A stretch of DNA of 64,000 nucleotides from Patescibacteria group bacterium (GTDB lineage Bacteria; Patescibacteriota; Patescibacteriia; SG8-24; DYFX01), in NCBI GenBank assembly GCA_030583805.1, contig CP129476.1, positions 669,640 through 733,639 of the forward strand. The letters run 5' to 3'. The position numbers were made by a program, and so were the translations under genes. The notes beneath the pieces are model-generated. The model was not told where the DNA came from, ran no database searches, and worked only from the letters and a program-made list of their open reading frames with translations. The number at the start of each line of letters is the position of its first letter. Positions within the stretch are counted from its first letter, which is position 1. Shown here piece by piece: positions 4,395 through 25,920 of this stretch.

Positions 4395-4673
4395 TCACCA
4401 ATCGAAGGGCGCCCGGGGCAGAAGCGGCGGAAGGCCGGCGAAGCTGACGGCGAACTGCGTGAGAGAGATCGCGCAAAGGACGATGCCGGCCGCGAGGTAC
4501 GCGCGCCGGTATGCGCCGCGGAAGCGGAGGCACGCGATGCCGCAAAGAGCGGAAAGTACGGCGAACGCGATGACGGGAAAGAGAAAGGCGGGCGGTACGA
4601 CGACGAGGCTGGCGAAGACGTTCCGCCATCGGGAAGCGGGCGCGCGTTGCGCGGTACGGCTGAGCACGGGCAT
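4395..4673 (-). CDS. Small membrane protein (hypothetical)
   Basis: 92 aa with two hydrophobic helices. It is followed on the minus strand by a hairpin plus T-run at ~4378-4410. Confidence 0.4.
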   Translation of the reverse strand: MPVLSRTAQRAPASRWRNVFASLVVVPPAFLFPVIAFAVLSALCGIACLRFRGAYRRAYLAAGIVLCAISLTQFAVSFAGLPPLLPRAPFDW

Positions 4674-4732
4674 GCGCGACTCCTTGGCGGGTTATCTTCA
4701 AGGTAAGGCCGGGTAACGTTCGCGTCAACGCA

Positions 4733-4758
4733 AAACCCCGCCGAAGCGGGGTTTTTGT
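4733..4758 (-). terminator. Rho-independent terminator downstream of the cytochrome b5-like gene
   Basis: The sequence aaaaccccgccgaagcggggttttt is a GC hairpin with a flanking A/T run. Confidence 0.6.
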
Positions 4759-4762
4759 GCGG

Positions 4763-5224
4763 TTACTTCAACGCACCAATCTTGAATGATGCGAGTCTGT
4801 TCTCCTGAAGCGCGGAACCGCCGTGCTGGTTGTTGAAGGTGGCACTACCGTCTCTGCCGCAGAGCGACAAGATGGCGCTCTCGCCGCCGGGGTGTTTGCC
4901 GATCCACGAGGTGAGGTCGTAGACCGAGCCGTTGATGGCGGACCAACAGCTGGCAGCGCCGGCGTGCGCCGCGACTTCGGCCATCGTATAGGTCTTCGCG
5001 CCGGTTGGTTCGTCGGAAACCGGAGGCGTCGGCTCGGGTTCAGTCTCCGTCTCCGGAGGCGGACAGCATGGCGGTTCGGGTGTCGGGGTGGGCTCGGGCG
5101 CGGGTTCGGGAGTCGGCGCCGGGGCAGGCTGCTCTTGAGCGGCGGGCGGCAGCGTCGTCGTCGAGGCGCAGCCTGCGCCGACGAGAATCAAAACTGAAGC
5201 GAAAGAAAGCAGGATTTTTTTCAT
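4763..5224 (-). CDS. Lipoprotein with a Pro/Glu/Thr-rich linker and a cytochrome b5-like heme-binding domain
   Basis: Start MKKILLSFASVLILVGAGC is a lipobox signal peptide with an AAGGAGG SD 6 nt upstream. The long PEPTPEP linker is followed by a cyt-b5 signature region ending ...SWIGKHPGGESAIL. Confidence 0.7.
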   Translation of the reverse strand: MKKILLSFASVLILVGAGCASTTTLPPAAQEQPAPAPTPEPAPEPTPTPEPPCCPPPETETEPEPTPPVSDEPTGAKTYTMAEVAAHAGAASCWSAINGSVYDLTSWIGKHPGGESAILSLCGRDGSATFNNQHGGSALQENRLASFKIGALK

Positions 5225-5289
5225 AGGTAATAACAAGTAAGGAGGTCTTCGGCCAGTATAACAAAAACGCCTTGAGACAAGGCGCGTGG

Positions 5290-5625
5290 TCAAGCGGACT
5301 TTCGGAGGAGGTCTTTTCCGGCGTCGGTGAGATGAAACTTGTGGACCTTGAGATGCTTCAAGAAGCCGTCGATCGTAACAGGCTCGATATCAATCGTGCG
5401 TCGCACGTAGCCGGCATCCTCAAGCTTCGTGAGAAAATGGTACGGGAAAGCGATGCCTGTGACGCTGCAGATTTCGAGACCGGACATGCCCTCCAACGGC
5501 GCGCCGCGCAGCACGTAGAGCACGAGACGGGTCTGGCCTTTGCCGCCGACCCAGATGAACATGGCGACGTGGTAGACGGTCCAGAGCGCCGCGAACGCGA
5601 TGAGCCAATTGACGTGAATGTACAT
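5290..5625 (-). CDS. Membrane-anchored winged-helix (PadR/MarR-like) protein
   Basis: Start MYIHVNWL has an AAGGAGGG SD. There is an N-terminal TM helix followed by a wHTH-like segment (SGLEICSVTGIAFPYHFLTKLEDAGYVRR). Confidence 0.55.
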   Translation of the reverse strand: MYIHVNWLIAFAALWTVYHVAMFIWVGGKGQTRLVLYVLRGAPLEGMSGLEICSVTGIAFPYHFLTKLEDAGYVRRTIDIEPVTIDGFLKHLKVHKFHLTDAGKDLLRKSA

Positions 5626-5708
5626 GAACCCTCCTTGGGCATGTGCACGCTCCAAATATCACGGGCCGGAGAACGCGTCAACGCGCGTAGAAAAGAAAAA
5701 CGCCACGT

Positions 5709-6230
5709 TCAGCGTGGCGAGATAGCCGCTTCGATGCGGTCTTCGATCAGGCGTTCGAACTCGGGTTCCGGTTGCGCGAGAGCGCGGCGAATCTCGTTCG
5801 CGTCTTTCGCTCCGGCGGCGAAGAGCAGCGCGTAGCGCCAGTGGATGGCGATATCTTCGCTCCCGCGTTTCGGAAAGAGCATCGCGTCCTTCTCGATCGA
5901 GGGGCGAAACTGTTTGCTGCAGCGCAGGAGATGATCGCACTGGTCGGGATCGACGCGACGGCGCAGGTGCGGATGGCGCGTGTAGTACCACACCGCCTCG
6001 CGAATGAAGCGCAGCGCTTCCGCGCCGCCTTCATATGTGAGCGTGACGCGCGCGCCGTTCACGGTCTCGATCAGCGTGAGCTTGTCGAATCTCACTTCGC
6101 AGACGCGCGGCGCGCCGAACTTCATCTGCCGCATGAACGCGACGGACGCCTCGCCGGTCGGACACGCCACCGGCGTGCCGGCGGCGCAGCGCCAAGCGTC
6201 GTTCGCGGTGGAGGTGAGAATGTCGATCAC
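5709..6230 (-). CDS. Hypothetical protein
   Basis: A candidate GTG start is coupled to the upstream stop (GTGA at 6227-6230). The alternative long ORF start (6287) would overlap the upstream gene by 60 nt. No recognisable domain. Confidence 0.4.
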   Translation of the reverse strand: MIDILTSTANDAWRCAAGTPVACPTGEASVAFMRQMKFGAPRVCEVRFDKLTLIETVNGARVTLTYEGGAEALRFIREAVWYYTRHPHLRRRVDPDQCDHLLRCSKQFRPSIEKDAMLFPKRGSEDIAIHWRYALLFAAGAKDANEIRRALAQPEPEFERLIEDRIEAAISPR

Positions 6231-18314: not shown

Positions 18315-18389
18315 GGCCTCATCGTCTAACGGTTAGGACAGCTCCCTTTCACGGAGCAGATAGGGGTTCGATTCCCCTTGGGGCTACCA
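18315..18389 (+). tRNA. tRNA-Glu (anticodon UUC)
   Basis: Hand-folded cloverleaf. The acceptor stem is GGCCUCA/UGGGGCU with 2 G-U pairs. The D arm is GTCT/GGAC. The anticodon arm is GCTCC-cTTTCAc-GGAGC. The T arm is AGGGG-TTCGATT-CCCCT. CCA is encoded. Confidence 0.8.
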
Positions 18390-19878
18390 AAAGCGACCTT
18401 CCTTCCGGGAAGGTCGTTTTTATTGCAAAGATTGGCGACAAAGCGGTAGTTCCAAATTTGTTTCCGTCGAAAGTCAGTCTTTCCTTGAAAATTAGGTTCT
18501 GAAAACGGATACGGGCGTGATGATTGCCTTCAAGGCCCATCCATGTCTTGGCGGGCTGACCAATAAATTTAAAGCAGTAGTCCATAGCCCCCTGCAGATC
18601 AAAGTCGTCCTTTCGGTTATCTTCTATCAGCGAGTATTGGACGTCGAGCCTCTTGCTATTCAATGCCCGCTGCTCCTGAAAATCCTCATCACTATATTTT
18701 CCGTTTCGGTGTAATTCAAAGATTTGCTGACGCTCGATCTTCAGCTTTTCAATAATCTGTTGTACGGCAGCCTCTCGTTTGTCAAAACGTCGGTGATTGG
18801 ACTTCCAAATGTCCATAACAACCGATTTGAACAACTTCTCGTATTTCTGATCGGGAGCGATTGTAGAAAGGTGCTTAACAAAAGTACTTTCAAATTTATC
18901 TTTTGCGATTGTTTTTTTCTTGGAGCACGCACTATTGGAGTGGTGGTAATAGGGGTAGCGCTTACCTTTCCACCCTCGCGTGTTGCTACCAGTTAGTGGC
19001 GACCCGCATTCAGCGCAGCAAATAAGTTTCCGTAGTGGAAACATAGAATTATCAGTTTCCCGAGGTACGGACCAGCTGGAACGTTGGCCCGTCGGCTGCT
19101 GGCACGCCCGGAAAAGTTGCGGGGCAATAATAGGTTCAAAGCCGCCCACCCATTCCTCACCAAAAGCTTTGATAACTCCGCAATATGCCGGGTTGCGTAG
19201 CAGCTTTTGGACCTCTTGCGGCAGGATGGGTTTCTTACGTTTCGTGAGCAAGCCTTGCTTTGTCAAGAAATCCGCCATTTCCTTATAGGTCTTCTCCCCC
19301 TTCGCGTATTCTTCAAAACCTGCACGCACAATGGGCGCCATGATCGGATCAGGAACAATATGCGTTCTTTTACCGCGCAGAGGTTTGTAGTACCCCAGAG
19401 GTGGTATCCAAACCCAGTACCCCTCCTTTGCACGTTGGATCATTCCATTTTTTGTTCGATTGGCACGTTGCGCATTATCGTATTGAGCAACAAGAGCATG
19501 GATACCTCCCATGAATTCACCCTCCGGGGTTTCGTTGATCGTTTCAGATACGGACCGCAAGCTCGTCCCATGCTTCAACAAGATTTCACGCACCCCTAAA
19601 TGCACCTGCGCGTTGCGAGAAAAGCGGTCCAACTTATGGACGATGAAGAAGGTGGGCTTGTTTTTCGTGCAGTAGTCAATCGCTGCCATAAACGCAGCGC
19701 GGTCAGCCGTTTTGGCGGATTGGCCACCCTCAACAAAAACCTTCAGGACGGTAATCTTGTTTCGCTGAGCATACTCGCGGCACTGCTCCTCCTGCGTCTC
19801 CAAGCTGGTCCCCTCAACCTGCTCTTTCGAAGAAACGCGGACGTAGATAATACATGTTTGGTTGGCCTGTGGGTTCAT
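18349..19878 (-). CDS. Large serine recombinase (integrase)
   Basis: 509 aa. The N-terminal resolvase catalytic domain (IIYVRVSSKEQ) is followed by a recombinase domain and a zinc ribbon (CCAECGSPL...). The last ~13 codons (...GIEPLSAP) are encoded by the complementary strand of the tRNA-Glu T-arm and acceptor. Confidence 0.85.
   Translation of the reverse strand: MNPQANQTCIIYVRVSSKEQVEGTSLETQEEQCREYAQRNKITVLKVFVEGGQSAKTADRAAFMAAIDYCTKNKPTFFIVHKLDRFSRNAQVHLGVREILLKHGTSLRSVSETINETPEGEFMGGIHALVAQYDNAQRANRTKNGMIQRAKEGYWVWIPPLGYYKPLRGKRTHIVPDPIMAPIVRAGFEEYAKGEKTYKEMADFLTKQGLLTKRKKPILPQEVQKLLRNPAYCGVIKAFGEEWVGGFEPIIAPQLFRACQQPTGQRSSWSVPRETDNSMFPLRKLICCAECGSPLTGSNTRGWKGKRYPYYHHSNSACSKKKTIAKDKFESTFVKHLSTIAPDQKYEKLFKSVVMDIWKSNHRRFDKREAAVQQIIEKLKIERQQIFELHRNGKYSDEDFQEQRALNSKRLDVQYSLIEDNRKDDFDLQGAMDYCFKFIGQPAKTWMGLEGNHHARIRFQNLIFKERLTFDGNKFGTTALSPIFAIKTTFPEGRSLLVAPRGIEPLSAP
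18393..18421 (+). terminator. Hairpin plus T-run immediately after the tRNA
   Basis: The sequence gcgaccttccttccgggaaggtcg ends in ttttt. Confidence 0.6.
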
Positions 19879-20198
19879 AGCTCATTCCGTACAATACCCA
19901 ATTTTTCGATGTTGGAGCCGACCCCAAGGGGTTTTTTGGAAAGATGATCTATTTTCCATCCCCGAGCATCGAAAGCTAGATGTCCGATGCCATACAAGAT
20001 TGCTAAAATACCCTCTAACTGCTCATTAGTGAGGTCTTTCAAGGCCGGATCGACTTTTCTAGCCTGTTTGGGCGAGAGCATCAGGAATAGCAACAAAAAA
20101 GCGTGCATGCCCACAACCCAAAAATAGGGGTTGTGAGGCATACACGCTTTCCGGCGATCCGACGTTATCGGACCGTACCCGGCTTCGGCGCTCGGCAA
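19875..20198 (-). CDS. Hypothetical small membrane protein
   Basis: 107-aa ORF that overlaps the recombinase start by 4 nt. It has one hydrophobic segment and low GC like the rest of the island. Confidence 0.35.
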   Translation of the reverse strand: MPSAEAGYGPITSDRRKACMPHNPYFWVVGMHAFLLLFLMLSPKQARKVDPALKDLTNEQLEGILAILYGIGHLAFDARGWKIDHLSKKPLGVGSNIEKLGIVRNEL

Positions 20199-20269
20199 AT
20201 TGCCGACGGTTGGGAAGACCTTATAGCGACAAGATTATATCTTTTTTGCACCCTATGCAAGTGCTGGTG

Positions 20270-22033
20270 TTATGCGGCTAGCTGCTCAAACACTGGGTCC
20301 AAACGTTCGGCTGCTACCCTTTTGGCACCGACCATTTTTGCCAGTTCCAAACACGCAACACCATATCCAATATTCTTCGAAGCAATATGGCGTTGATAAA
20401 ATTCCTTCAACATGGCTTTGCCGTGAAAACGATCTGTGGCCTTTCCCTCCGCCAATATTCCATCAACTACTTCGGTGGCATCAAGCACATAGCGCCCTAG
20501 GTCCGTGTCGTTAGGCAGCAATGCTTGAATTTCAGCCACCGCGCTTCTGTGGGCCTCCTTCACCTCCGCAACCGTAGCACCATTAAGACGCACCGTCCGA
20601 GTTTTTAACTTTTGACGAACGCGCCGTGCAATCTCGCTATTCTTCATGCTTGTAGCAATTACAACAAGCTCTTTCGAGAGTGCCGCTTCATCCGCAAAGG
20701 TATTCACTTCGATACTCAACAAGTACTGTTGCAGAATTTCCGGGTCTAAAAGGAAATTTTCGATCATGCATACAGGTAGCTGAAAAACGCCTGGGGTGCT
20801 TCCGAGAGATTGATCTGCGTCTACAAGACCCCTCACACGAATTCTATAGACGTCTTCGGGAACATGCTCGCGCAGACGAGTGACCGTATTAATGACATTC
20901 CCCTTACCACCCACTGGAACCAGTGTGTATGCAGTTGCCCTTGGATAAAAGATTTGAAGCAATCGAAGGTCGGAAGGCTCGTCGGGCGGTGCTGTCTCGC
21001 CTTCAATGCAAACCAGCGCTCGACCAGTGGTAAGGAAATAGGTACTACCAGCGAGTTGCTTTAGGGCCTCTAAGCGCTCAAGGCTAGATGCAATGCGCTT
21101 GAGTTGGTTTTCTTCCGGATCAGCTGACGGATTGGACAACAGGTACAACTCGTTGTCGAACGTCTGATCTAAGATGGTGGGTGAATGTGTAGTGAGAACG
21201 AATTGAGTTCTTGCAGTTGCTGCTTGGTTTCGTACGTAAGCAAGCAATTTTGATTGTAGGTCCGGGTGCAAATGCTGCTCTGGCTCATCCACTAAAAAAA
21301 CCCGATCCTCCGGCGCTCGAGCGGCCGGAGTGCTGCCAGACCCAATAGTTTCTAATTTCTCCAAATTCTCACGAATAGCGTCCTCCAGCAGGGGAAGGAA
21401 AAGAACGATGATCGATTTTTCGCCCGAACTCATGTCGTCAATATCAACCTCGATGGTGCCGCTGGCATCCTTACGAGCCCAGATACAACGGATATTTTCT
21501 TCGTCGGCAAAATCAATCCTATCGAAAACGAGGTGTGGCAATAGATACTTAGTCAGGTTTTCTAGGGGTTCGTAGATGCGCGGCAATGTTGCCGGATCAA
21601 TAGTTTCCCCATGACGTTGCTTTGCATCAACTACTCCAGCAATGATTGCCTGCCGCCGATTTTCGATCTTCCCTAGGGTATGCTTGATCGTACTACCAGC
21701 TTCATCGACGTTTCCGGGCGTGCGGGCAGAGTTATGAAAACTCAGGCCCTCGTAACCAGAAACATCATTGCCAGAAATCAAATCCGCAAGTGACCTAAGA
21801 CCGCCGGACAACCATCCACGCCTTACTTTAGTGGCGCGAAGAACACGGTGGGGCGGTTGATAAAAAATACGCGTGTTACCATCCGTGGTATTAGCACCTT
21901 GTTTAATGGCATATAAAAGCGTGGACTTGCCCACACCATTCGGACCAGCAATAACCATCACAGCCGGAACCTCTGTCGCTTCAGCTAGACGAATGGACTT
22001 GTTATTTACGACCCTGAAAGTTTTTAACCCCAT
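20270..22033 (-). CDS. OLD-family / PARIS (AriA-AriB fusion)-like ABC-type ATPase with C-terminal Toprim-like nuclease domain
   Basis: 587 aa. ABC-ATPase motifs seen: Walker A GPNGVGKST, Q-loop FYQPPH, signature-like MSSGEKS, Walker B/D-loop VFLVDEPEQHLHP, and H-loop LTTHSP. A C-terminal region with LVCIEGETA and GLVDADQS resembles the Toprim E and DxD motifs of OLD/DUF4435 nucleases. Confidence 0.6.
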   Translation of the reverse strand: MGLKTFRVVNNKSIRLAEATEVPAVMVIAGPNGVGKSTLLYAIKQGANTTDGNTRIFYQPPHRVLRATKVRRGWLSGGLRSLADLISGNDVSGYEGLSFHNSARTPGNVDEAGSTIKHTLGKIENRRQAIIAGVVDAKQRHGETIDPATLPRIYEPLENLTKYLLPHLVFDRIDFADEENIRCIWARKDASGTIEVDIDDMSSGEKSIIVLFLPLLEDAIRENLEKLETIGSGSTPAARAPEDRVFLVDEPEQHLHPDLQSKLLAYVRNQAATARTQFVLTTHSPTILDQTFDNELYLLSNPSADPEENQLKRIASSLERLEALKQLAGSTYFLTTGRALVCIEGETAPPDEPSDLRLLQIFYPRATAYTLVPVGGKGNVINTVTRLREHVPEDVYRIRVRGLVDADQSLGSTPGVFQLPVCMIENFLLDPEILQQYLLSIEVNTFADEAALSKELVVIATSMKNSEIARRVRQKLKTRTVRLNGATVAEVKEAHRSAVAEIQALLPNDTDLGRYVLDATEVVDGILAEGKATDRFHGKAMLKEFYQRHIASKNIGYGVACLELAKMVGAKRVAAERLDPVFEQLAA

Positions 22034-22346
22034 GTTTATTTGCTTGCTGACTTACGTTGGACAGAAGCGCCTTCACACGCTCCTTTTGATCATTGGACAT
22101 CCACTGTGCCCAATACCCCTGATATGAGGCAAGTTGTAGATAGGCGTTATACGCCGCGTCACCAGCGAATAGCTGTTGTGCCTGCGGTGAGCGGGTAACT
22201 AGTGTGGGGCTGTTGGTAGTGGCACGCAGCACCAGTCTTTGCGTGTCGGGCTGGTTATTTTCAGCGGTTTCTAAGCACCACTCAATATGGTCGAGCAATG
22301 CTCCATGCTTTGCGACATTATCACTGATTGGGATGCGAAAAAACAT
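22002..22346 (-). CDS. Hypothetical protein (114 aa), co-operonic with the OLD-like gene
   Basis: The ORF overlaps the downstream ATPase start by 32 nt. It has no known motif and the island's low-GC composition. Confidence 0.4.
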   Translation of the reverse strand: MFFRIPISDNVAKHGALLDHIEWCLETAENNQPDTQRLVLRATTNSPTLVTRSPQAQQLFAGDAAYNAYLQLASYQGYWAQWMSNDQKERVKALLSNVSQQANKHGVKNFQGRK

Positions 22347-22349
22347 ACT

Positions 22350-22562
22350 TCAGTTCTCGGTTCTCTCATTAATGAGCTCGCCTAAACATACAAGGTAAGC
22401 GACGCTAATGCCTACCACGAAAGCACGTTGTACCATTCCGCCACCGAAGACGTAGCCCAGAAGTGTGCCGCCAACAAACGCTGCGACCTGCTGAAGAATG
22501 ATCCTGCGAATTGGTGCCTCGCCTATTCCATACCAGCCCCAAAACCCTCTCTCTTTTTTCAT
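22350..22562 (-). CDS. Small two-TM membrane protein (hypothetical)
   Basis: MKKERGFWGWYG... with two hydrophobic helices. It is the first gene of the three-gene minus-strand operon. The start is uncertain (no SD). Confidence 0.35.
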   Translation of the reverse strand: MKKERGFWGWYGIGEAPIRRIILQQVAAFVGGTLLGYVFGGGMVQRAFVVGISVAYLVCLGELINERTEN

Positions 22563-22815
22563 ACCCGTGGTTGGATTTATTGGCAGGACGCACAAAGCTC
22601 CCCGCCAGCGATGGCTTGCGCCACCCATGCAAGTTTCCCTGCATGACCAACCACGGTGCTCTGACGAGGAGCCCTATACCGTGGTTGGTTTAGATGCCGT
22701 GCCCAGCGTTTTAGGCTGGGGTTAGGCACTATGAATTGTGGTGGTAATTTATCACATCTGGACCAGAAAGCTACAATGCTCGCTCCAAGACGCCTACTTT
22801 CAAAATTCGCTAAAC

Positions 22816-24273
22816 ATGGCTAGGCTTGTTAGCAACACCCCCCCCTTCACTCAGAAGACAATGATTGAAAAAACTGAAATAGAGGCCAAGGCAAAGGAGT
22901 TTGAGCTACACGTCGCAAATGTACAACGTGACTATGTTTTTGGTTGGCTACTTTTTGGTATTTTTACTTCAAGCAAATTAAAAGATCAGATTTTTTTGAA
23001 AGGCGGAAATGCATTACGCAAAGGGTATTTCCGTGACACACGCTTTTCAAGCGATTTGGACCTCGGTATTCCAAATGACATTGAACAGACTGTTTTGCTC
23101 GATGAGTTCAATGCTGTCTGCGCCTTTGTTGAGCATCACGCGGGGATTTCATTTGTTACGGATGAAAATAAAGTTGAGGAGAAGTTTGCCGCCGCCGAAG
23201 CGCCGATCCCTGGGTTGCGGGTCTATGAGGCCCGGATTTATTTCAGGGATTTCTATGGTAAAGCCGATCATTTCAAAATAAAGGTGGCGATGGACATCAC
23301 CCGTTTCGACAAGGTTCTATTACCGATACAATCGGTTGATTTGATACATCCATACTCTGATGCCAGCGATGTCGCCTGCAAAATCCAGTGTATGAAGTTG
23401 GAGGAGATCATCGCCACGAAATTGAAATGTCTTTTGCAAAGGGAGCATGCTCCTGATTTGTTCGATTACGTATATTCAATCAAACAGCTGGGCGGCGAGC
23501 TCAACAAAACCGAGGTAATTACGACGCTGGTTCAGAAAACAATTTTCGGACGCAACCCACATGTTCTGAAATGTATTCTACGAAATACACCTTTTGACTA
23601 TTTCAAAAGCTATTGGGCAACGACCGTTGTGTGTGCGAAACAATTTATCTTTGGAGTAGAAGAAGCAATTACGTTTTTTCTTTCTGACCTCGAAGGCTTG
23701 TTCACCATTTACCCGGATAATGGCTTCGAAGCGTTTGCTTACTTTGGACCAGAATTGAGATTGCCGATCATGAAGGCTGGGAGAGAGCAGACACTGCTCA
23801 AAATTTGCTATAAGGGAGCGGATAGGCTGGTCGAGCCCTACTCTCTGAAGTACATGCAACGTAAGGATGGCGTAGAGAGAGAATATCTATACGTCTACAA
23901 TCTAAGCGGCGGAGATAGCGAGCCCGGAATACGTTCATTTGTCGCGGAGAAAATTGAAGCAATCGAAAATACGAATGAAAAATTCGCCCCTCGGGCGCAA
24001 ATCGAATTATCAAAGGCTGGAGAGCTACCAGAAAATCCATACCTTTTTGACCCAGATAGGCCAACTCCCGCTCCACGCCCCCGCCATCGCGTCAGTAAGT
24101 TGACCCGAGGCTGGGGAAGCGCGGCGTCGTCAATCAAATACATCTATCAGTGTAGCTATTGCGGTCGAAAATTTTCTAAATCGAAACATGACGGATCGCT
24201 GCGAGAGCACAAAGACAAGGGAGGCTATCGCTGCGGAGGTAGGCACGGCTTCTATGTCGACACAAAATACTAA
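22816..24273 (+). CDS. AbiEii/DUF1814-like nucleotidyltransferase fused to a C-terminal zinc-ribbon (candidate abortive-infection/defence protein)
   Basis: The N-terminal motif IFLKGGNALRKGYFRDTRFSSDLDLG matches the AbiEii-type pol-beta NTase signature (hGG-x9-13-DhDh). The C-terminus YQCSYCGRKF...H...H..C...C is Cys/His-rich. The start is uncertain (22738 GTG, 22816 ATG, or 22861 ATG). A possible -10 TACAAT lies at 22772-22777. Confidence 0.6.
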   Translation: MARLVSNTPPFTQKTMIEKTEIEAKAKEFELHVANVQRDYVFGWLLFGIFTSSKLKDQIFLKGGNALRKGYFRDTRFSSDLDLGIPNDIEQTVLLDEFNAVCAFVEHHAGISFVTDENKVEEKFAAAEAPIPGLRVYEARIYFRDFYGKADHFKIKVAMDITRFDKVLLPIQSVDLIHPYSDASDVACKIQCMKLEEIIATKLKCLLQREHAPDLFDYVYSIKQLGGELNKTEVITTLVQKTIFGRNPHVLKCILRNTPFDYFKSYWATTVVCAKQFIFGVEEAITFFLSDLEGLFTIYPDNGFEAFAYFGPELRLPIMKAGREQTLLKICYKGADRLVEPYSLKYMQRKDGVEREYLYVYNLSGGDSEPGIRSFVAEKIEAIENTNEKFAPRAQIELSKAGELPENPYLFDPDRPTPAPRPRHRVSKLTRGWGSAASSIKYIYQCSYCGRKFSKSKHDGSLREHKDKGGYRCGGRHGFYVDTKY

Positions 24274-24664
24274 ACTTGTTTCCGTTGATTTCGTTCCACG
24301 ATAGCTCGTATATCTGCCGAAATCTGTGCCAGGCCGGGAAACTCGAGTTGTTGACGTTCGCCCCACCCCTCAACCCATTGAAGCCACAGCTTACGGTCTG
24401 CGGAGGCACCCGAACTTGGGCTCACAGCTCTCTTGTAAAGAGCCTGAATAACGTCGGGGGTTTTGTCTTTGGTCCAAGCAGCCATTGATCTTCGGACGCG
24501 CTCATCAAATCCGGTGACGAGCCTCCAATCAGAGAGTGTCGCCGGATCAACATCCAAAAGCACTGCCAATTCTTTCTGATTACGTGGACGTCGCAGAGGT
24601 GTAGGAAGCGCACACCACGCAACAAATTTCTCGAATTCGACTATCTTTTTTGTAAGAGACATAA
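24270..24664 (-). CDS. Small HTH DNA-binding protein (terminase-small-subunit-like, or a possible recombination directionality factor)
   Basis: Start MSLTKKIVEFEKF. The predicted HTH is ...NQKELAVLLDVDPATLSDWR. It is convergent with the NTase gene and is the last gene of the low-GC island. Confidence 0.4.
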
Positions 24665-24820
24665 TTGGCTTAAATTGGCATAGCGACGCCCGTTCCATCA
24701 CCTCGTGGCACCTAGTGTGTAGGAACGATAGTCCTGCGAGGAAGGCTGTCAGCAAAGAGCTTCCATTGTTTGAGCTCGGCCACGATTTCGTTCCAGATTT
24801 CAGTGGTCCGGGCTACCACC

Positions 24821-24855
24821 AAAACACCCGCCTAAACGGCGGGTGTTTTGTTTTT
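24821..24855. terminator. Bidirectional terminator at the right edge of the island
   Basis: The hairpin acacccgcctaaacggcgggtgt is flanked by aaaa on one side and tttgttttt on the other. Confidence 0.65.
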
Positions 24856-24936: not shown

Positions 24937-25920
24937 GTGAACAATGACGTAGTGGTCTTTCCAAGAGACTTCGCCCCGGCTCACGCCTTGCAGAACCCCG
25001 AAACGCTGATCGCCTGCGGCGACGCGGTCTCGGCAGGATCGGTCTCGGGCGACACCATCGAGGTCGACGTGGGTTCACGGCCGCTTCGGCTCGTCCTGCG
25101 GGGCTTCAAGATCATGGATCCCCCGAGGCCCGCCCGATCCAACGGCTCCAACGCCCTGTACCTGGCGAGCGGCAAGGACAAGCGGGACGGACTCCTGCTG
25201 CAGTACCTTCCGCCGCACGCGACGACGTCGCTGCACTTTCACGCCTGCACCCGCGAGACGTTCCACCTGCTGGCCGGCCAGGCCGCCCTCAGGACGCCCT
25301 GGGGTACGGAAGTTCCCCTGAACGTGCGCCGCAGCGTCACCAACGACGAGTTCGTCCCGCACCAGGTCGTGACCGCCGAATCCGCATCGGTCATCCTGCT
25401 CGAGATGGCATTGCCGTCCGAGTCCACGGGCATGAAGGATCACTTCTACGTGGACGCGAACACCGCGCTCGACATCCATTCCAAGGGTGCGTATCCATCT
25501 TCCGAGCTGAGCAACTTCGCAGCGCACGGCTTCTCCATCGACGGCGTCGACTGCGCTTCGATGGAGGGGTTCCTCCAGTCCCTCAAGGAACCCGATCCGG
25601 AAGTCCAGCGCATGATCTGCAAGCTCGTCGGCGGCGAAGCCAAGCGCCGCGGCGAGAAGTTGAACCTGGCCAGGCTGCCCTCGGATCCGCTCCACTGGCA
25701 GGGTCAGGTCATCGATCGTCGATCGCAGTCATACCAGCAGCTGCTGGACCGAGCCTACGCGGAGCTGGCGAAGAGCGGCAGCTTTCAGAAAGCGCTGGCG
25801 GCCACGGGGGAAGCCCTGCTGGTACACAGCATCGGCAAGAAGCTGCCGGAAGACACGATCCTCACGGAGACGGAGCTGTGCTCCAGGCTGCTGCGGATTC
25901 GATATTCGCTGCAGTCGTGA
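24937..25920 (+). CDS. Hypothetical protein with N-terminal cupin-like domain
   Basis: GTG start with a GGAGG SD. The segment TSLHFHACTRETFHLLAGQAAL resembles the cupin HxH...E...G motif. The C-terminal ~150 aa are unassigned. Confidence 0.5.
   Translation: MNNDVVVFPRDFAPAHALQNPETLIACGDAVSAGSVSGDTIEVDVGSRPLRLVLRGFKIMDPPRPARSNGSNALYLASGKDKRDGLLLQYLPPHATTSLHFHACTRETFHLLAGQAALRTPWGTEVPLNVRRSVTNDEFVPHQVVTAESASVILLEMALPSESTGMKDHFYVDANTALDIHSKGAYPSSELSNFAAHGFSIDGVDCASMEGFLQSLKEPDPEVQRMICKLVGGEAKRRGEKLNLARLPSDPLHWQGQVIDRRSQSYQQLLDRAYAELAKSGSFQKALAATGEALLVHSIGKKLPEDTILTETELCSRLLRIRYSLQS

Follow-up and report, generated by a model that had tools for sequence, protein, structure and literature searches.

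AbiE and MenAT have so far been seen as toxin-antitoxin pairs whose antitoxin makes the toxin auto-phosphorylate. MenT1, MenT3, MenT4 and AbiEii of Streptococcus agalactiae add nucleotides onto tRNA 3' ends, which stops translation; AbiEi binds AbiEii and triggers its auto-phosphorylation, dephosphorylation of the S. agalactiae enzyme by a host phosphatase has been reported, and every DUF1814 enzyme characterised inhibits growth by modifying tRNA and is restrained by an antitoxin (PMC7450476, PMC10435456, bioRxiv 10.64898/2026.01.19.700257). The off-switch of MenT and AbiEii is the auto-phosphorylation of a Ser or Thr located two residues ahead of the first catalytic Asp, that is S78 in MenT3 and T65 in AbiEii, and S. 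agalactiae AbiE gave no protection in E. coli against 32 coliphages (bioRxiv 10.64898/2026.01.19.700257). Classical AbiEii (L. lactis, S. agalactiae; PF08843) is no more than the nucleotidyltransferase (NTase) domain, about 33 kDa including the His-tag, and its gene follows that of AbiEi. A WYL domain fused to an "AbiGII-like nucleotidyltransferase (DUF1814)" was already listed by Makarova et al. in 2014 (PMC4012209), and, going by PDB entry titles, there are structures of the DriD and CapW WYL domains in complex with single-stranded DNA (7tzv, 9c5g).

The protein described here is encoded in a 64-kb stretch of DNA that we analysed as a whole (hereafter the window). It belongs to the same NTase family as AbiEii, with which it shares the hGG...S/T-x-D-x-D centre and the K/R/D motifs of the C-lobe, but it has no AbiEi and it carries a WYL domain, a linker and a zinc site after the NTase domain (Table 1).

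Table 1. Features of the locus, with positions counted from the first nucleotide of the window
Feature	Position	Strand	Remarks
tRNA-Glu	18315-18389		island boundary
Large serine recombinase	18349-19878	-	Resolvase, Recombinase and Zn_ribbon_recom domains
Low-GC island carrying the gene	18390-24850		from the 3' side of tRNA-Glu to a terminator-like hairpin (24820-24850)
Fused PARIS-like AriA-AriB ATPase	20270-22033	-	PADLOC AriAB, E 4.9e-43
LOOT RNA (Rfam RF03000)	22610-22728	-	89.5 bits (gathering score 46.4); covers the full length, 1-121
Sigma-70-like promoter candidate TTATCA-17-TACAAT	22749-22777	+	9/12 consensus matches; 84 nt upstream of ATG 22861
AbiEii-WYL-zinc-finger gene	22861-24273	+	470 aa; stop codon included
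AbiEii/DUF1814 NTase domain	22861-23745	+	aa 1-295
S63-S-D65-L-D67 motif	23047-23061	+	two catalytic Asp and a Ser at the auto-phosphorylation position of relatives
WYL domain	23749-23982	+	aa 297-374; one helix, then a five-stranded Sm-like barrel
Conserved linker motif	23989-24066	+	aa 377-402; P-R-x-x-IELSKAGElPENPYLFDPdRP
Variable Arg/Ser/Pro-rich basic linker	24067-24132	+	aa 403-424; predicted disordered
C2HC zinc-binding module	24133-24270	+	aa 425-470; Y-x-Y-Q-C431-x-x-C434-G-x-K-F438...L-x-x-H450...G-Y-x-C458-G-G

Start codon and nucleotidyltransferase domain

The longest open reading frame (22738-24273, plus strand) begins with GTG and would encode 511 aa, and a preliminary description of the locus gave 480-510 aa; the true start is most likely ATG 22861. 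We prefer this start because its product is identical to NCBI WKZ28622.1, because nearly all homologues share an MI-x-K-x-EIE start at the matching position, and because the sigma-70-like site falls within the supposed 5' extension; on these grounds the 511-aa form was set aside. The promoter candidate is weak evidence, as a consensus scan returned 5 sites in the region where 2.9 were expected. In the sister assembly, the gene caller picked ATG 22816 instead (485 aa). The 470-aa product can be aligned over its whole length with 120 homologues (460-475 aa; 64-76% identity). PDB and NCBIfam searches with the single window-protein sequence gave no matches.

The N-terminal domain matches PF08843 (AbiEii) with 76.5 bits (cut-off 22.5; E 3.9e-21) and 27 AbiEii models of PADLOC (best E 3.7e-45), values that exclude a chance resemblance as the source of the AbiEii-type signature noticed earlier. 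Its characteristic residues are K47-G48-G49, S63-x-D65-x-D67, D145, K187/K189/R194 and D199/D202; all but S63 are conserved in 39-44 of 44 aligned sequences, and S63 is kept in 43. CD-NTases (CBASS) and MNT/KNTases, which the preliminary description had named for comparison, provided no profile or fold match better than DUF1814, and the fold resembles that of the solved MenT toxins. Together, the sequence and the predicted structure show a pol-beta-type NTase domain with an intact KGG...S-x-D-x-D centre.

Compared with MenT3/TglT (Rv1045) and MenT4 (Rv2826c) of M. tuberculosis, motif I can be aligned with that of MenT4 residue for residue, and the mutant names in the TglT PDB entries (S78A, D82A) indicate the same S-x-D-x-D spacing. 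From this motif, rather than from a residue-level superposition, we infer that S63 is the equivalent of the auto-phosphorylated S78 of MenT3 and T65 of AbiEii. However, overall identity to the two mycobacterial toxins is 14-16%, and the MenT toxins are paired with MenA antitoxins and lack a C-terminal sensor module.

A WYL domain and a zinc site behind the catalytic domain

As had been remarked, the protein is longer than classical AbiEii, with ~185 aa beyond the NTase domain. The C-terminal zinc ribbon proposed at the same time stands as a zinc site, but the extension (175 aa with WYL domain, linker and zinc site) is mainly made of a WYL domain and a linker motif that had been overlooked, the basic linker lying between the latter and the zinc site. 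A first AF2 model, with close homologues only in the alignment, was poor (pLDDT 70); a second one, with distant representatives added, was compact and confident (mean pLDDT 85.7, pTM 0.76).

First, the WYL domain matches the PF13280 profile and has the predicted helix and barrel of that family. Second, the linker motif has no predicted regular secondary structure (pLDDT ~77-85 in the second model) and is the most conserved segment of the close clade, with 79% identity and with E382, K385, G387, E388, P390, F396, D397, P398 and P401 invariant in 30 close homologues; the basic linker that follows has 21% identity in the same clade and a pLDDT below 50 for residues 406-422. Third, the predicted zinc ligands C431, C434, H450 and C458 are found in 44/44 aligned sequences and F438 in 42/44, which bears out most of the Cys/His cluster listed before, except that its first His (H445) is not conserved. 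Profile matches of the zinc module stayed below threshold (zf-C2H2 in 31 of 40 members, Zn_ribbon_8 in 20, zf-BED in 14), and a PDB profile search led to classical C2H2 fingers (E 3e-4). The pattern Y-x-C-x2-C-x3-F-x8-L-x2-H resembles such fingers, although AF2 gives strands only and no helix.

A search of 1.84 billion representatives with the last 186 aa of the protein gave 412 hits at E <= 0.001, each standing for a cluster at 50% identity. Ten hits of intermediate length were checked as candidates for a pairing of the module with other effectors, and none proved to be one: nine were N-terminally cut AbiEii and one had no Pfam match.

The WYL/zinc-finger module probably binds single-stranded nucleic acid, because DriD and CapW do so, PafBC responds to single-stranded DNA and WYL1 binds single-stranded RNA. 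DriD, PafBC, BrxR and CapW are HTH transcription factors, whereas in the window protein an enzyme domain precedes the WYL domain and a zinc site comes after it, which departs from the usual arrangement.

Long AbiEii-WYL-zinc-finger proteins also occur behind AbiEi, in abiEi-abiEii operons carried by plasmids of proteobacteria, namely WP_100922825.1 (Thiodictyon pTs417), WP_283054706.1 (Rhizobium sp. CB3171) and WP_051336852.1 (R. sullae). Each is preceded by an overlapping AbiEi gene, which bears this name in the PGAP annotation of two of them. These relatives have the full architecture of the window protein, and their catalytic residues, WYL core (R-x-EPY-x-L; Pfam WYL 35.9 bits in the R. sullae protein) and C-x-x-C...F...H...C pattern align with it. 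In contrast, their identity to it is only 26-28%, their linker motif does not have the KAGE-x-PENPYLFDP form and they have an insertion before the WYL domain. Since distant relatives with the same architecture keep AbiEi, the C-terminal module was gained first and the antitoxin lost later in this clade. The extension is therefore not simply an antitoxin replacement, and the gene is a derived branch of a known system and not a new one. These paired relatives and the fusion listed in 2014 (PMC4012209) temper the novelty of the variant suggested in the preliminary description.

Genomic setting and search for a partner

The gene (GC 0.452) is carried by an island with a GC content of 0.486, compared to 0.616 in the rest of the window, and no flanking direct repeats or attachment-site repeats were found around it. 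A convergent small HTH gene had been described as its only neighbour. Yet the upstream region holds, on the opposite strand, the LOOT RNA, two small ORFs and the PARIS-like ATPase, and the HTH gene itself (24270-24755, minus strand) is probably not a gene: it has a sub-threshold Pfam match only (E 0.017), no homologue in a search of 5.8 billion proteins, and it is uncalled in the sister assembly. As a candidate partner we discarded it on these grounds, and also because it is unrelated to the similarly annotated gene of another locus (L004).

The architecture of 470 aa is maintained throughout a very large family with horizontal spread, which reaches many bacterial phyla at the identities given above (one contig was binned as archaeal) and is common in Patescibacteria. 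Its distribution is patchy and island-borne, with recombinases and tRNA genes adjoining, and in 23 of 24 long loci, as well as in the window, the gene has a lower GC content than the DNA at a distance of 3-6 kb. Among 146 neighbours of homologues scanned with PADLOC, we found matches to Shedu, MADS, HerA, Nhi, a methyltransferase and a type IV restriction enzyme. A tblastn search of 50,697 phage genomes gave no homologue, which is neutral as to a defence role; together with the lack of PHROGs hits, it led us to reject a phage origin.

We then consider antitoxins. The adjacent, co-transcribed AbiEi gene (COG5340) that defines the two-gene AbiE system is absent from the window locus, where no gene at all precedes the AbiEii-WYL-zinc-finger gene on the same strand. 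An AbiEi HMM, built from three genuine AbiEi proteins and recovering all three of these training sequences, had no match in any stop-to-stop frame of 64 homologous loci and of the 64-kb window, and none of 29 same-strand upstream neighbours of homologues matched the Pfam AbiEi families. No AbiEi gene lies alongside the PGAP-annotated homologues of Sinorhizobium and Sphingomonas (37-38% identity). Clustering 824 ORFs of the 64 loci disclosed no general neighbour: at most, a cluster of small ORFs recurred near 10 loci and a serine recombinase near 9. A relaxed all-against-all phmmer comparison of the neighbours did not reveal a general partner either. By sequence, then, this is a clade without an AbiEi gene and without any other conserved neighbour. 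The orphan status claimed in the preliminary description is thus upheld, both in the window and in the survey of homologous loci, and the reservation made there, that an upstream antitoxin might have been missed, found no echo in any frame of the window.

It is improbable, in our estimation, that the gene still belongs to a two-part system of which we missed the other part, be it a distant antitoxin, a host Ser/Thr kinase or phosphatase, or variable upstream genes. About twenty homologous loci do have a same-strand gene that overlaps the start codon or ends within 40 nt of it, but these genes are of unrelated families (M48 peptidase, PLD, RelA/SpoT, YhcG nuclease, ThiF, SMC-like ATPase, and many of no known family). 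The sole recurring one encodes a 217-aa membrane-anchored protein, found immediately upstream in 4 loci and 84-90% identical among three of them. The activity of a host phosphatase on S. agalactiae AbiEii, and the fact that the source genome was searched over 64 kb only, also speak for a missed partner; the window copy without any upstream gene on its strand, the Sinorhizobium and Sphingomonas homologues, and the silent AbiEi HMM speak against it.

Could the LOOT RNA be the partner, either acting as antitoxin or being bound by the WYL/zinc-finger module? A full-length copy diverges from the NTase gene at 133 nt from its start codon, and two homologues likewise have a LOOT RNA upstream, no more than 3.6 kb away. 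However, its absence from the other 56 of 58 loci scanned is a strong counter-argument, its distance and orientation relative to the NTase gene vary among the three cases, and each copy precedes, by 30-60 nt, a different gene of its own orientation, to which it would seem to belong. We consider this explanation hardly credible. A conserved RNA partner was rejected on the same distribution and on the lack of tandem repeats of the type III antitoxin kind.

Possible roles of a lone enzyme

The best reading of the locus, and one to which we give about an even chance, agrees with the self-contained NTase effector on an island that had been proposed: the gene may encode a single-gene abortive-infection effector, namely a tRNA-modifying NTase gated by the WYL/zinc-finger module. 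Judging from its relatives, the NTase domain would likely block translation as MenT and AbiEii do, by modification of tRNA 3' ends. The binding of single-stranded nucleic acid by the WYL/zinc-finger module may sense infection and free the enzyme, or may instead hold the RNA substrate, and the protein would act as one-gene abortive-infection or defence cargo. The defence and mobile setting, with the PARIS-like AriAB and the serine recombinase in the window, supports such an effector. Several points go against it. First, an unregulated tRNA-modifying toxin should kill its host. Second, the WYL/zinc-finger module is present in the AbiEi-paired relatives too, so that it need not be an off-switch. 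Third, the absence of an anti-coliphage effect of S. agalactiae AbiE means that a defence role is not established even for that AbiE system in a heterologous host. Fourth, identities of 64-76% between phyla are more than one would usually expect of a defence gene.

This high cross-phylum conservation, together with the loss of the antitoxin, would suit an inactive AbiE remnant or a protein re-used in a housekeeping task unrelated to defence. We hold either to be very improbable, since the catalytic and zinc-binding residues are all kept across the divergence of the 412 cluster representatives, and since a patchy, island-borne, low-GC gene beside recombinases and tRNA genes does not follow a housekeeping pattern.

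Possible, if rather doubtful, is an enzyme directed to its substrate, in which the WYL/zinc-finger module would recruit single-stranded nucleic acid and the NTase domain would tail it (3' ends of DNA or RNA from phages or plasmids, for example, or one particular RNA), leaving the host unharmed and needing no antitoxin. This would account for the survival of the clade without one, and the retention of the module in AbiEi-paired relatives suggests that it serves the enzyme itself rather than standing in for an antitoxin. WYL structures with single-stranded DNA (7tzv, 9c5g), the Arg-rich basic linker and the C2H2-like zinc site are in keeping with the binding of nucleic acids. But the characterised DUF1814 enzymes all inhibit growth by modifying tRNA under antitoxin control, and the near-complete conservation of S63 hints at a retained on/off switch.

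Such a switch could in principle be built into the protein. The C-terminal part might do the antitoxin's job in cis, motif 377-402 driving the auto-phosphorylation of S63 and phage nucleic acid on the WYL/zinc-finger module arming the enzyme, which we think unlikely. The acidic, clade-specific KAGE-x-PENPYLFDP motif would insert into the active site, in the manner of the AbiEi loop, until single-stranded nucleic acid of an invading phage, bound by the WYL/zinc-finger module, pulled it off. CapRel(SJ46) unites in one polypeptide a translation-blocking toxin of the RelA/SpoT type and a cis regulatory/sensor domain, and senses a phage capsid protein. The concept is all that the two share, as an analogy and not a homology, and cis inhibition in the window protein is putative.

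Whatever the mechanism, a large clade has kept every catalytic residue and the phospho-acceptor Ser, always with a WYL domain and a zinc site and with no antitoxin. It raises a testable question, namely by which means the enzyme is silenced and what triggers it. The practical value is modest for now. A three-way comparison, between short AbiEii paired with AbiEi, long AbiEii paired with AbiEi, and long AbiEii on its own, would make it possible to dissect the role of the WYL/zinc-finger module. To our knowledge, the defences of CPR/Patescibacteria are poorly known and few defence genes have been tested there. If the C-terminal part does act as an antitoxin in cis, sensor, switch and toxin would be combined in a single chain that is widespread in these bacteria.

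Architecture and distribution of the long AbiEii protein

The open reading frame at 22738-24273 (+) encodes 511 aa when counted from its GTG, and the 470-aa product from the ATG at 22861 is 100% identical to WKZ28622.1 (NCBI), which comes from a Patescibacteria-group MAG and is recorded as "nucleotidyl transferase AbiEii/AbiGii toxin family protein". We favour the start at 22861 because nearly all homologues begin at the matching position with MI-x-K-x-EIE, a promoter-like site (22749-22777) lies inside the putative 5' extension, and the gene caller picked an ATG at 22816 (485 aa) in a sister assembly, likewise 3' of the GTG.

First, the AbiEii-type N-terminal signature noticed in the preliminary description is genuine and not a chance resemblance, since both Pfam (E 3.9e-21) and PADLOC (E 3.7e-45) match AbiEii. 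Residues K47-G48-G49, S63, D65, D67, D145, K187, K189, R194, D199 and D202 are conserved in 39-44 of the 44 aligned sequences. Motif I of MenT4 aligns directly with that of the window protein, which also has the S-x-D-x-D spacing of MenT3, S63 lying two residues N-terminal to the first catalytic Asp; the MenT3 mutants S78A and D82A are named in PDB entries. Second, the C-terminal Cys/His cluster is also genuine and conserved, none of the 44 sequences lacking any of its four ligands and 42 having F438. In sequence it looks like a classical C2H2 finger, but the predicted structure gives strands only, and the earlier label "zinc ribbon" may or may not apply. Third, we found a WYL domain between the two. 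PF13280 matched the window copy alone at E 0.098, short of the Pfam threshold, and matched 24 of 40 family members (best E 2.9e-6); WYL reached 35.9 bits, over the Pfam cut-off, in one distant homologue. The PADLOC WYL model gave E 9e-4. An AlphaFold model with 30 close homologues as input was mediocre (pLDDT 70), and adding 16 distant representatives gave pLDDT 85.7 and pTM 0.76, with disorder limited to residues 406-422. Among the near homologues of the window protein, the linker motif is the most conserved of all segments (79% identity).

With the whole protein as query, we retrieved 1674 proteins; the top 120 were 64-100% identical to it over 94-100% of its length (100% in all but two) and nearly all 459-475 aa long. 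By scanning one genome per species, we obtained 64 loci from many Patescibacteria lineages as well as Bdellovibrionales, Omnitrophota, Bacteroidota, Planctomycetota, Verrucomicrobiota, Ignavibacteria, Acidobacteriota and Gamma-, Alpha- and Deltaproteobacteria, and one contig binned as Methanosarcinales, and including relatives with 37-51% identity in Actinomycetota, Myxococcota and Chloroflexota. Since several loci lie on chromosome-scale contigs, this wide spread is not a binning artefact. Searching with the C-terminal 186 residues alone gave 412 cluster representatives (E <= 0.001), and ten intermediate-length matches that we checked comprised nine N-terminally truncated AbiEii proteins and one without a Pfam match. 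At the sensitivity used, these searches place the C-terminal module exclusively with AbiEii-type NTases.

Positions of features in the window protein, in the window and in homologue loci (L numbers)
Feature	Position	Strand	Remarks
NTase domain	residues 1-295 of 470		
WYL domain	residues 297-374		one helix, five strands
Linker motif IELSKAGElPENPYLFDPdRP	residues 377-402		without regular secondary structure
Basic linker	residues 403-424		variable, disordered
Zinc site	residues 425-470		C431, C434, H450, C458
tRNA-Glu	18315-18389	+	left edge of island
Large serine recombinase	18349-19878	-	in island
Fused AriA-AriB (PARIS-like), 587 aa	20270-22033	-	AAA_21/AAA_15 ATPase and DUF4435; best PADLOC match E 4.9e-43
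LOOT RNA (Rfam RF03000), full-length	22610-22728	-	89.5 bits (gathering score 46.4); gap just 5' of NTase gene, opposite strand
Hairpin	24820-24850		right edge of island
LOOT RNA, L040	865-982	-	75.6 bits
LOOT RNA, L043	2367-2485	+	91.4 bits
217-aa membrane-helix protein, L030	2353-3006	+	
217-aa membrane-helix protein, L038	961-1608	+	
217-aa membrane-helix protein, L065	5335-5985	+	
217-aa membrane-helix protein, L012	491-964	+	

The island and its LOOT RNA

The NTase gene is carried by a 6.5-kb island with a GC content of 0.49, compared to 0.62 in the rest of the window. The 3' end of tRNA-Glu seems to be the insertion site of the island, because the serine recombinase ORF crosses a terminator-like hairpin (18389-18421) and ends within the tRNA gene; no matching direct repeat was found at the other end (~24850). 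The 587-aa fused protein is a candidate single-gene PARIS-like defence system. An ORF of 114 aa overlaps the start of its gene by 32 nt; like the small ORFs that the island also holds, it belongs to no known family. The convergent small HTH gene proposed earlier is probably not real, being a minus-strand ORF of 130/161 aa without homologues. If it is not a gene, the ~580 nt from the NTase stop to the hairpin (24274-24850), in which we found no Rfam match, hold no recognised feature. The first gene past the island (24937-25920, +) lies in high-GC host sequence and encodes 327 aa with a weak cupin match (E 6e-4) and a strong match to phage Gp30.3 (Phage_30_3, E 2e-47).

LOOT RNA takes its name from the phyla of its first sighting, including OD1 and OP11. 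In all three cases (window, L040 and L043) it lies 30-60 nt 5' of a gene on its own strand that belongs to no known family; the product is a 70/92-aa predicted membrane protein in the window and has 185 aa (L040) or 260 aa (L043) in the others. We rejected LOOT as a partner of the NTase because it is absent from the 56 other homologue loci scanned and adjoins a different gene each time. Its position points to a leader or an sRNA tied to island cargo genes.

Partner search and loss of AbiEi

By calling and clustering ORFs in all 64 loci, we found no general neighbour. Small ORFs of 65-90 aa that form one cluster lay near 10 loci and a large serine recombinase near 9, the window among them; no other neighbour was as frequent. 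In about 20 loci a gene is tightly coupled to the NTase gene on its 5' side. These genes come from families unrelated to one another (M48 peptidase, YhcG nuclease, RelA/SpoT, PLD, ThiF, SMC-like ATPase and unknowns), and none of them matched an AbiEi family. PADLOC identified scattered Shedu, MADS, HerA, Nhi, methyltransferases and a type IV restriction enzyme among 146 neighbours, with no recurrent defence gene. In 23 of 24 long loci the NTase gene had a lower GC content than DNA at a distance of 3-6 kb, and tRNA genes are often nearby. That a partner acting in trans was missed seems to us improbable.

Four loci from different phyla have, directly 5' of the NTase gene, a gene for a 217-aa protein that belongs to no known family and bears a membrane helix at its N-terminus. 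Three of the four copies share 84-90% identity, more than the NTase shows in those loci (~64-68% to the window copy), and the two genes may form a travelling cassette. In a Doudnabacteria locus (L011, equal to L001), a gene for a 466-aa M48-family peptidase (4604-6004, +), itself preceded by a 137-aa unknown gene, overlaps the NTase start by 4 nt, which may be a different operon-level association. Two fluoride riboswitch aptamers 3' of the homologue in an Omnitrophota locus (L026; 3907-3981 and 5914-5977, +) are probably unrelated to it.

We also collected full-length relatives from cultured bacteria by plasmid tblastn. No AbiEi is annotated beside homologues with 37-38% identity (Sinorhizobium, Sphingomonas). 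At 26-28% identity in the alignment, an overlapping gene precedes each of three relatives (Thiodictyon pTs417, Rhizobium sp. CB3171 and R. sullae); PGAP names two of these genes AbiEi antitoxin and the third matches AbiEi_4 (E 1.8e-4). Since these AbiEi-paired proteins already have the NTase-WYL-zinc-site architecture of the window protein, with all key residues aligned, we infer that the module arose within ordinary AbiE operons and that AbiEi was lost later, in the clade of the window gene. An HMM trained on these three AbiEi proteins recovered only its training sequences and matched nothing in the 64 loci or in the window, which was searched in all frames. In the window, moreover, no same-strand upstream gene adjoins the NTase gene; the reported lack of an AbiEi partner thus holds. 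WYL combined with an "AbiGII-like nucleotidyltransferase (DUF1814)" was listed by Makarova et al. 2014 (PMC4012209), so this fusion is already in the literature, where our searches brought up neither experiments on the AbiEi-less clade nor a study devoted to it. What the preliminary description observed is confirmed, and its interpretation holds in part. The window gene does not represent a new system; it encodes an AbiEii lengthened by a WYL domain and a zinc site, whose AbiEi has been lost.

Possible mode of action

The AbiEii-type active site of the window protein is intact, and the chain also carries a WYL domain and a zinc site and is predicted to fold compactly. Its gene lies in an island and defence setting, without an antitoxin gene. 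MenT1, MenT3, MenT4 and AbiEii add nucleotides to tRNA 3' ends and block translation (PMC7450476, PMC10435456, bioRxiv 10.64898/2026.01.19.700257), and by analogy the NTase domain would do the same. Complexes with ssDNA have been solved for the DriD and CapW WYL domains (7tzv, 9c5g), and the WYL/zinc-site module probably binds single-stranded nucleic acid likewise. Our preferred reading, to which as a whole we give about an even chance, is a single-gene abortive-infection effector gated by this module. The main rival explanation, in which the module picks the substrate and does not sense infection, would also account for survival without an antitoxin, and we consider it possible though unlikely.

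The MenT3 Ser at the motif position of S63, like T65 of S. agalactiae AbiEii, is auto-phosphorylated on antitoxin binding, turning the enzyme off (bioRxiv 10.64898/2026.01.19.700257). It is rather doubtful that the conserved 377-402 motif mimics an AbiEi loop in cis and controls S63 phosphorylation. Known as the architecture itself has been since 2014, this widespread family poses a clear, testable question.
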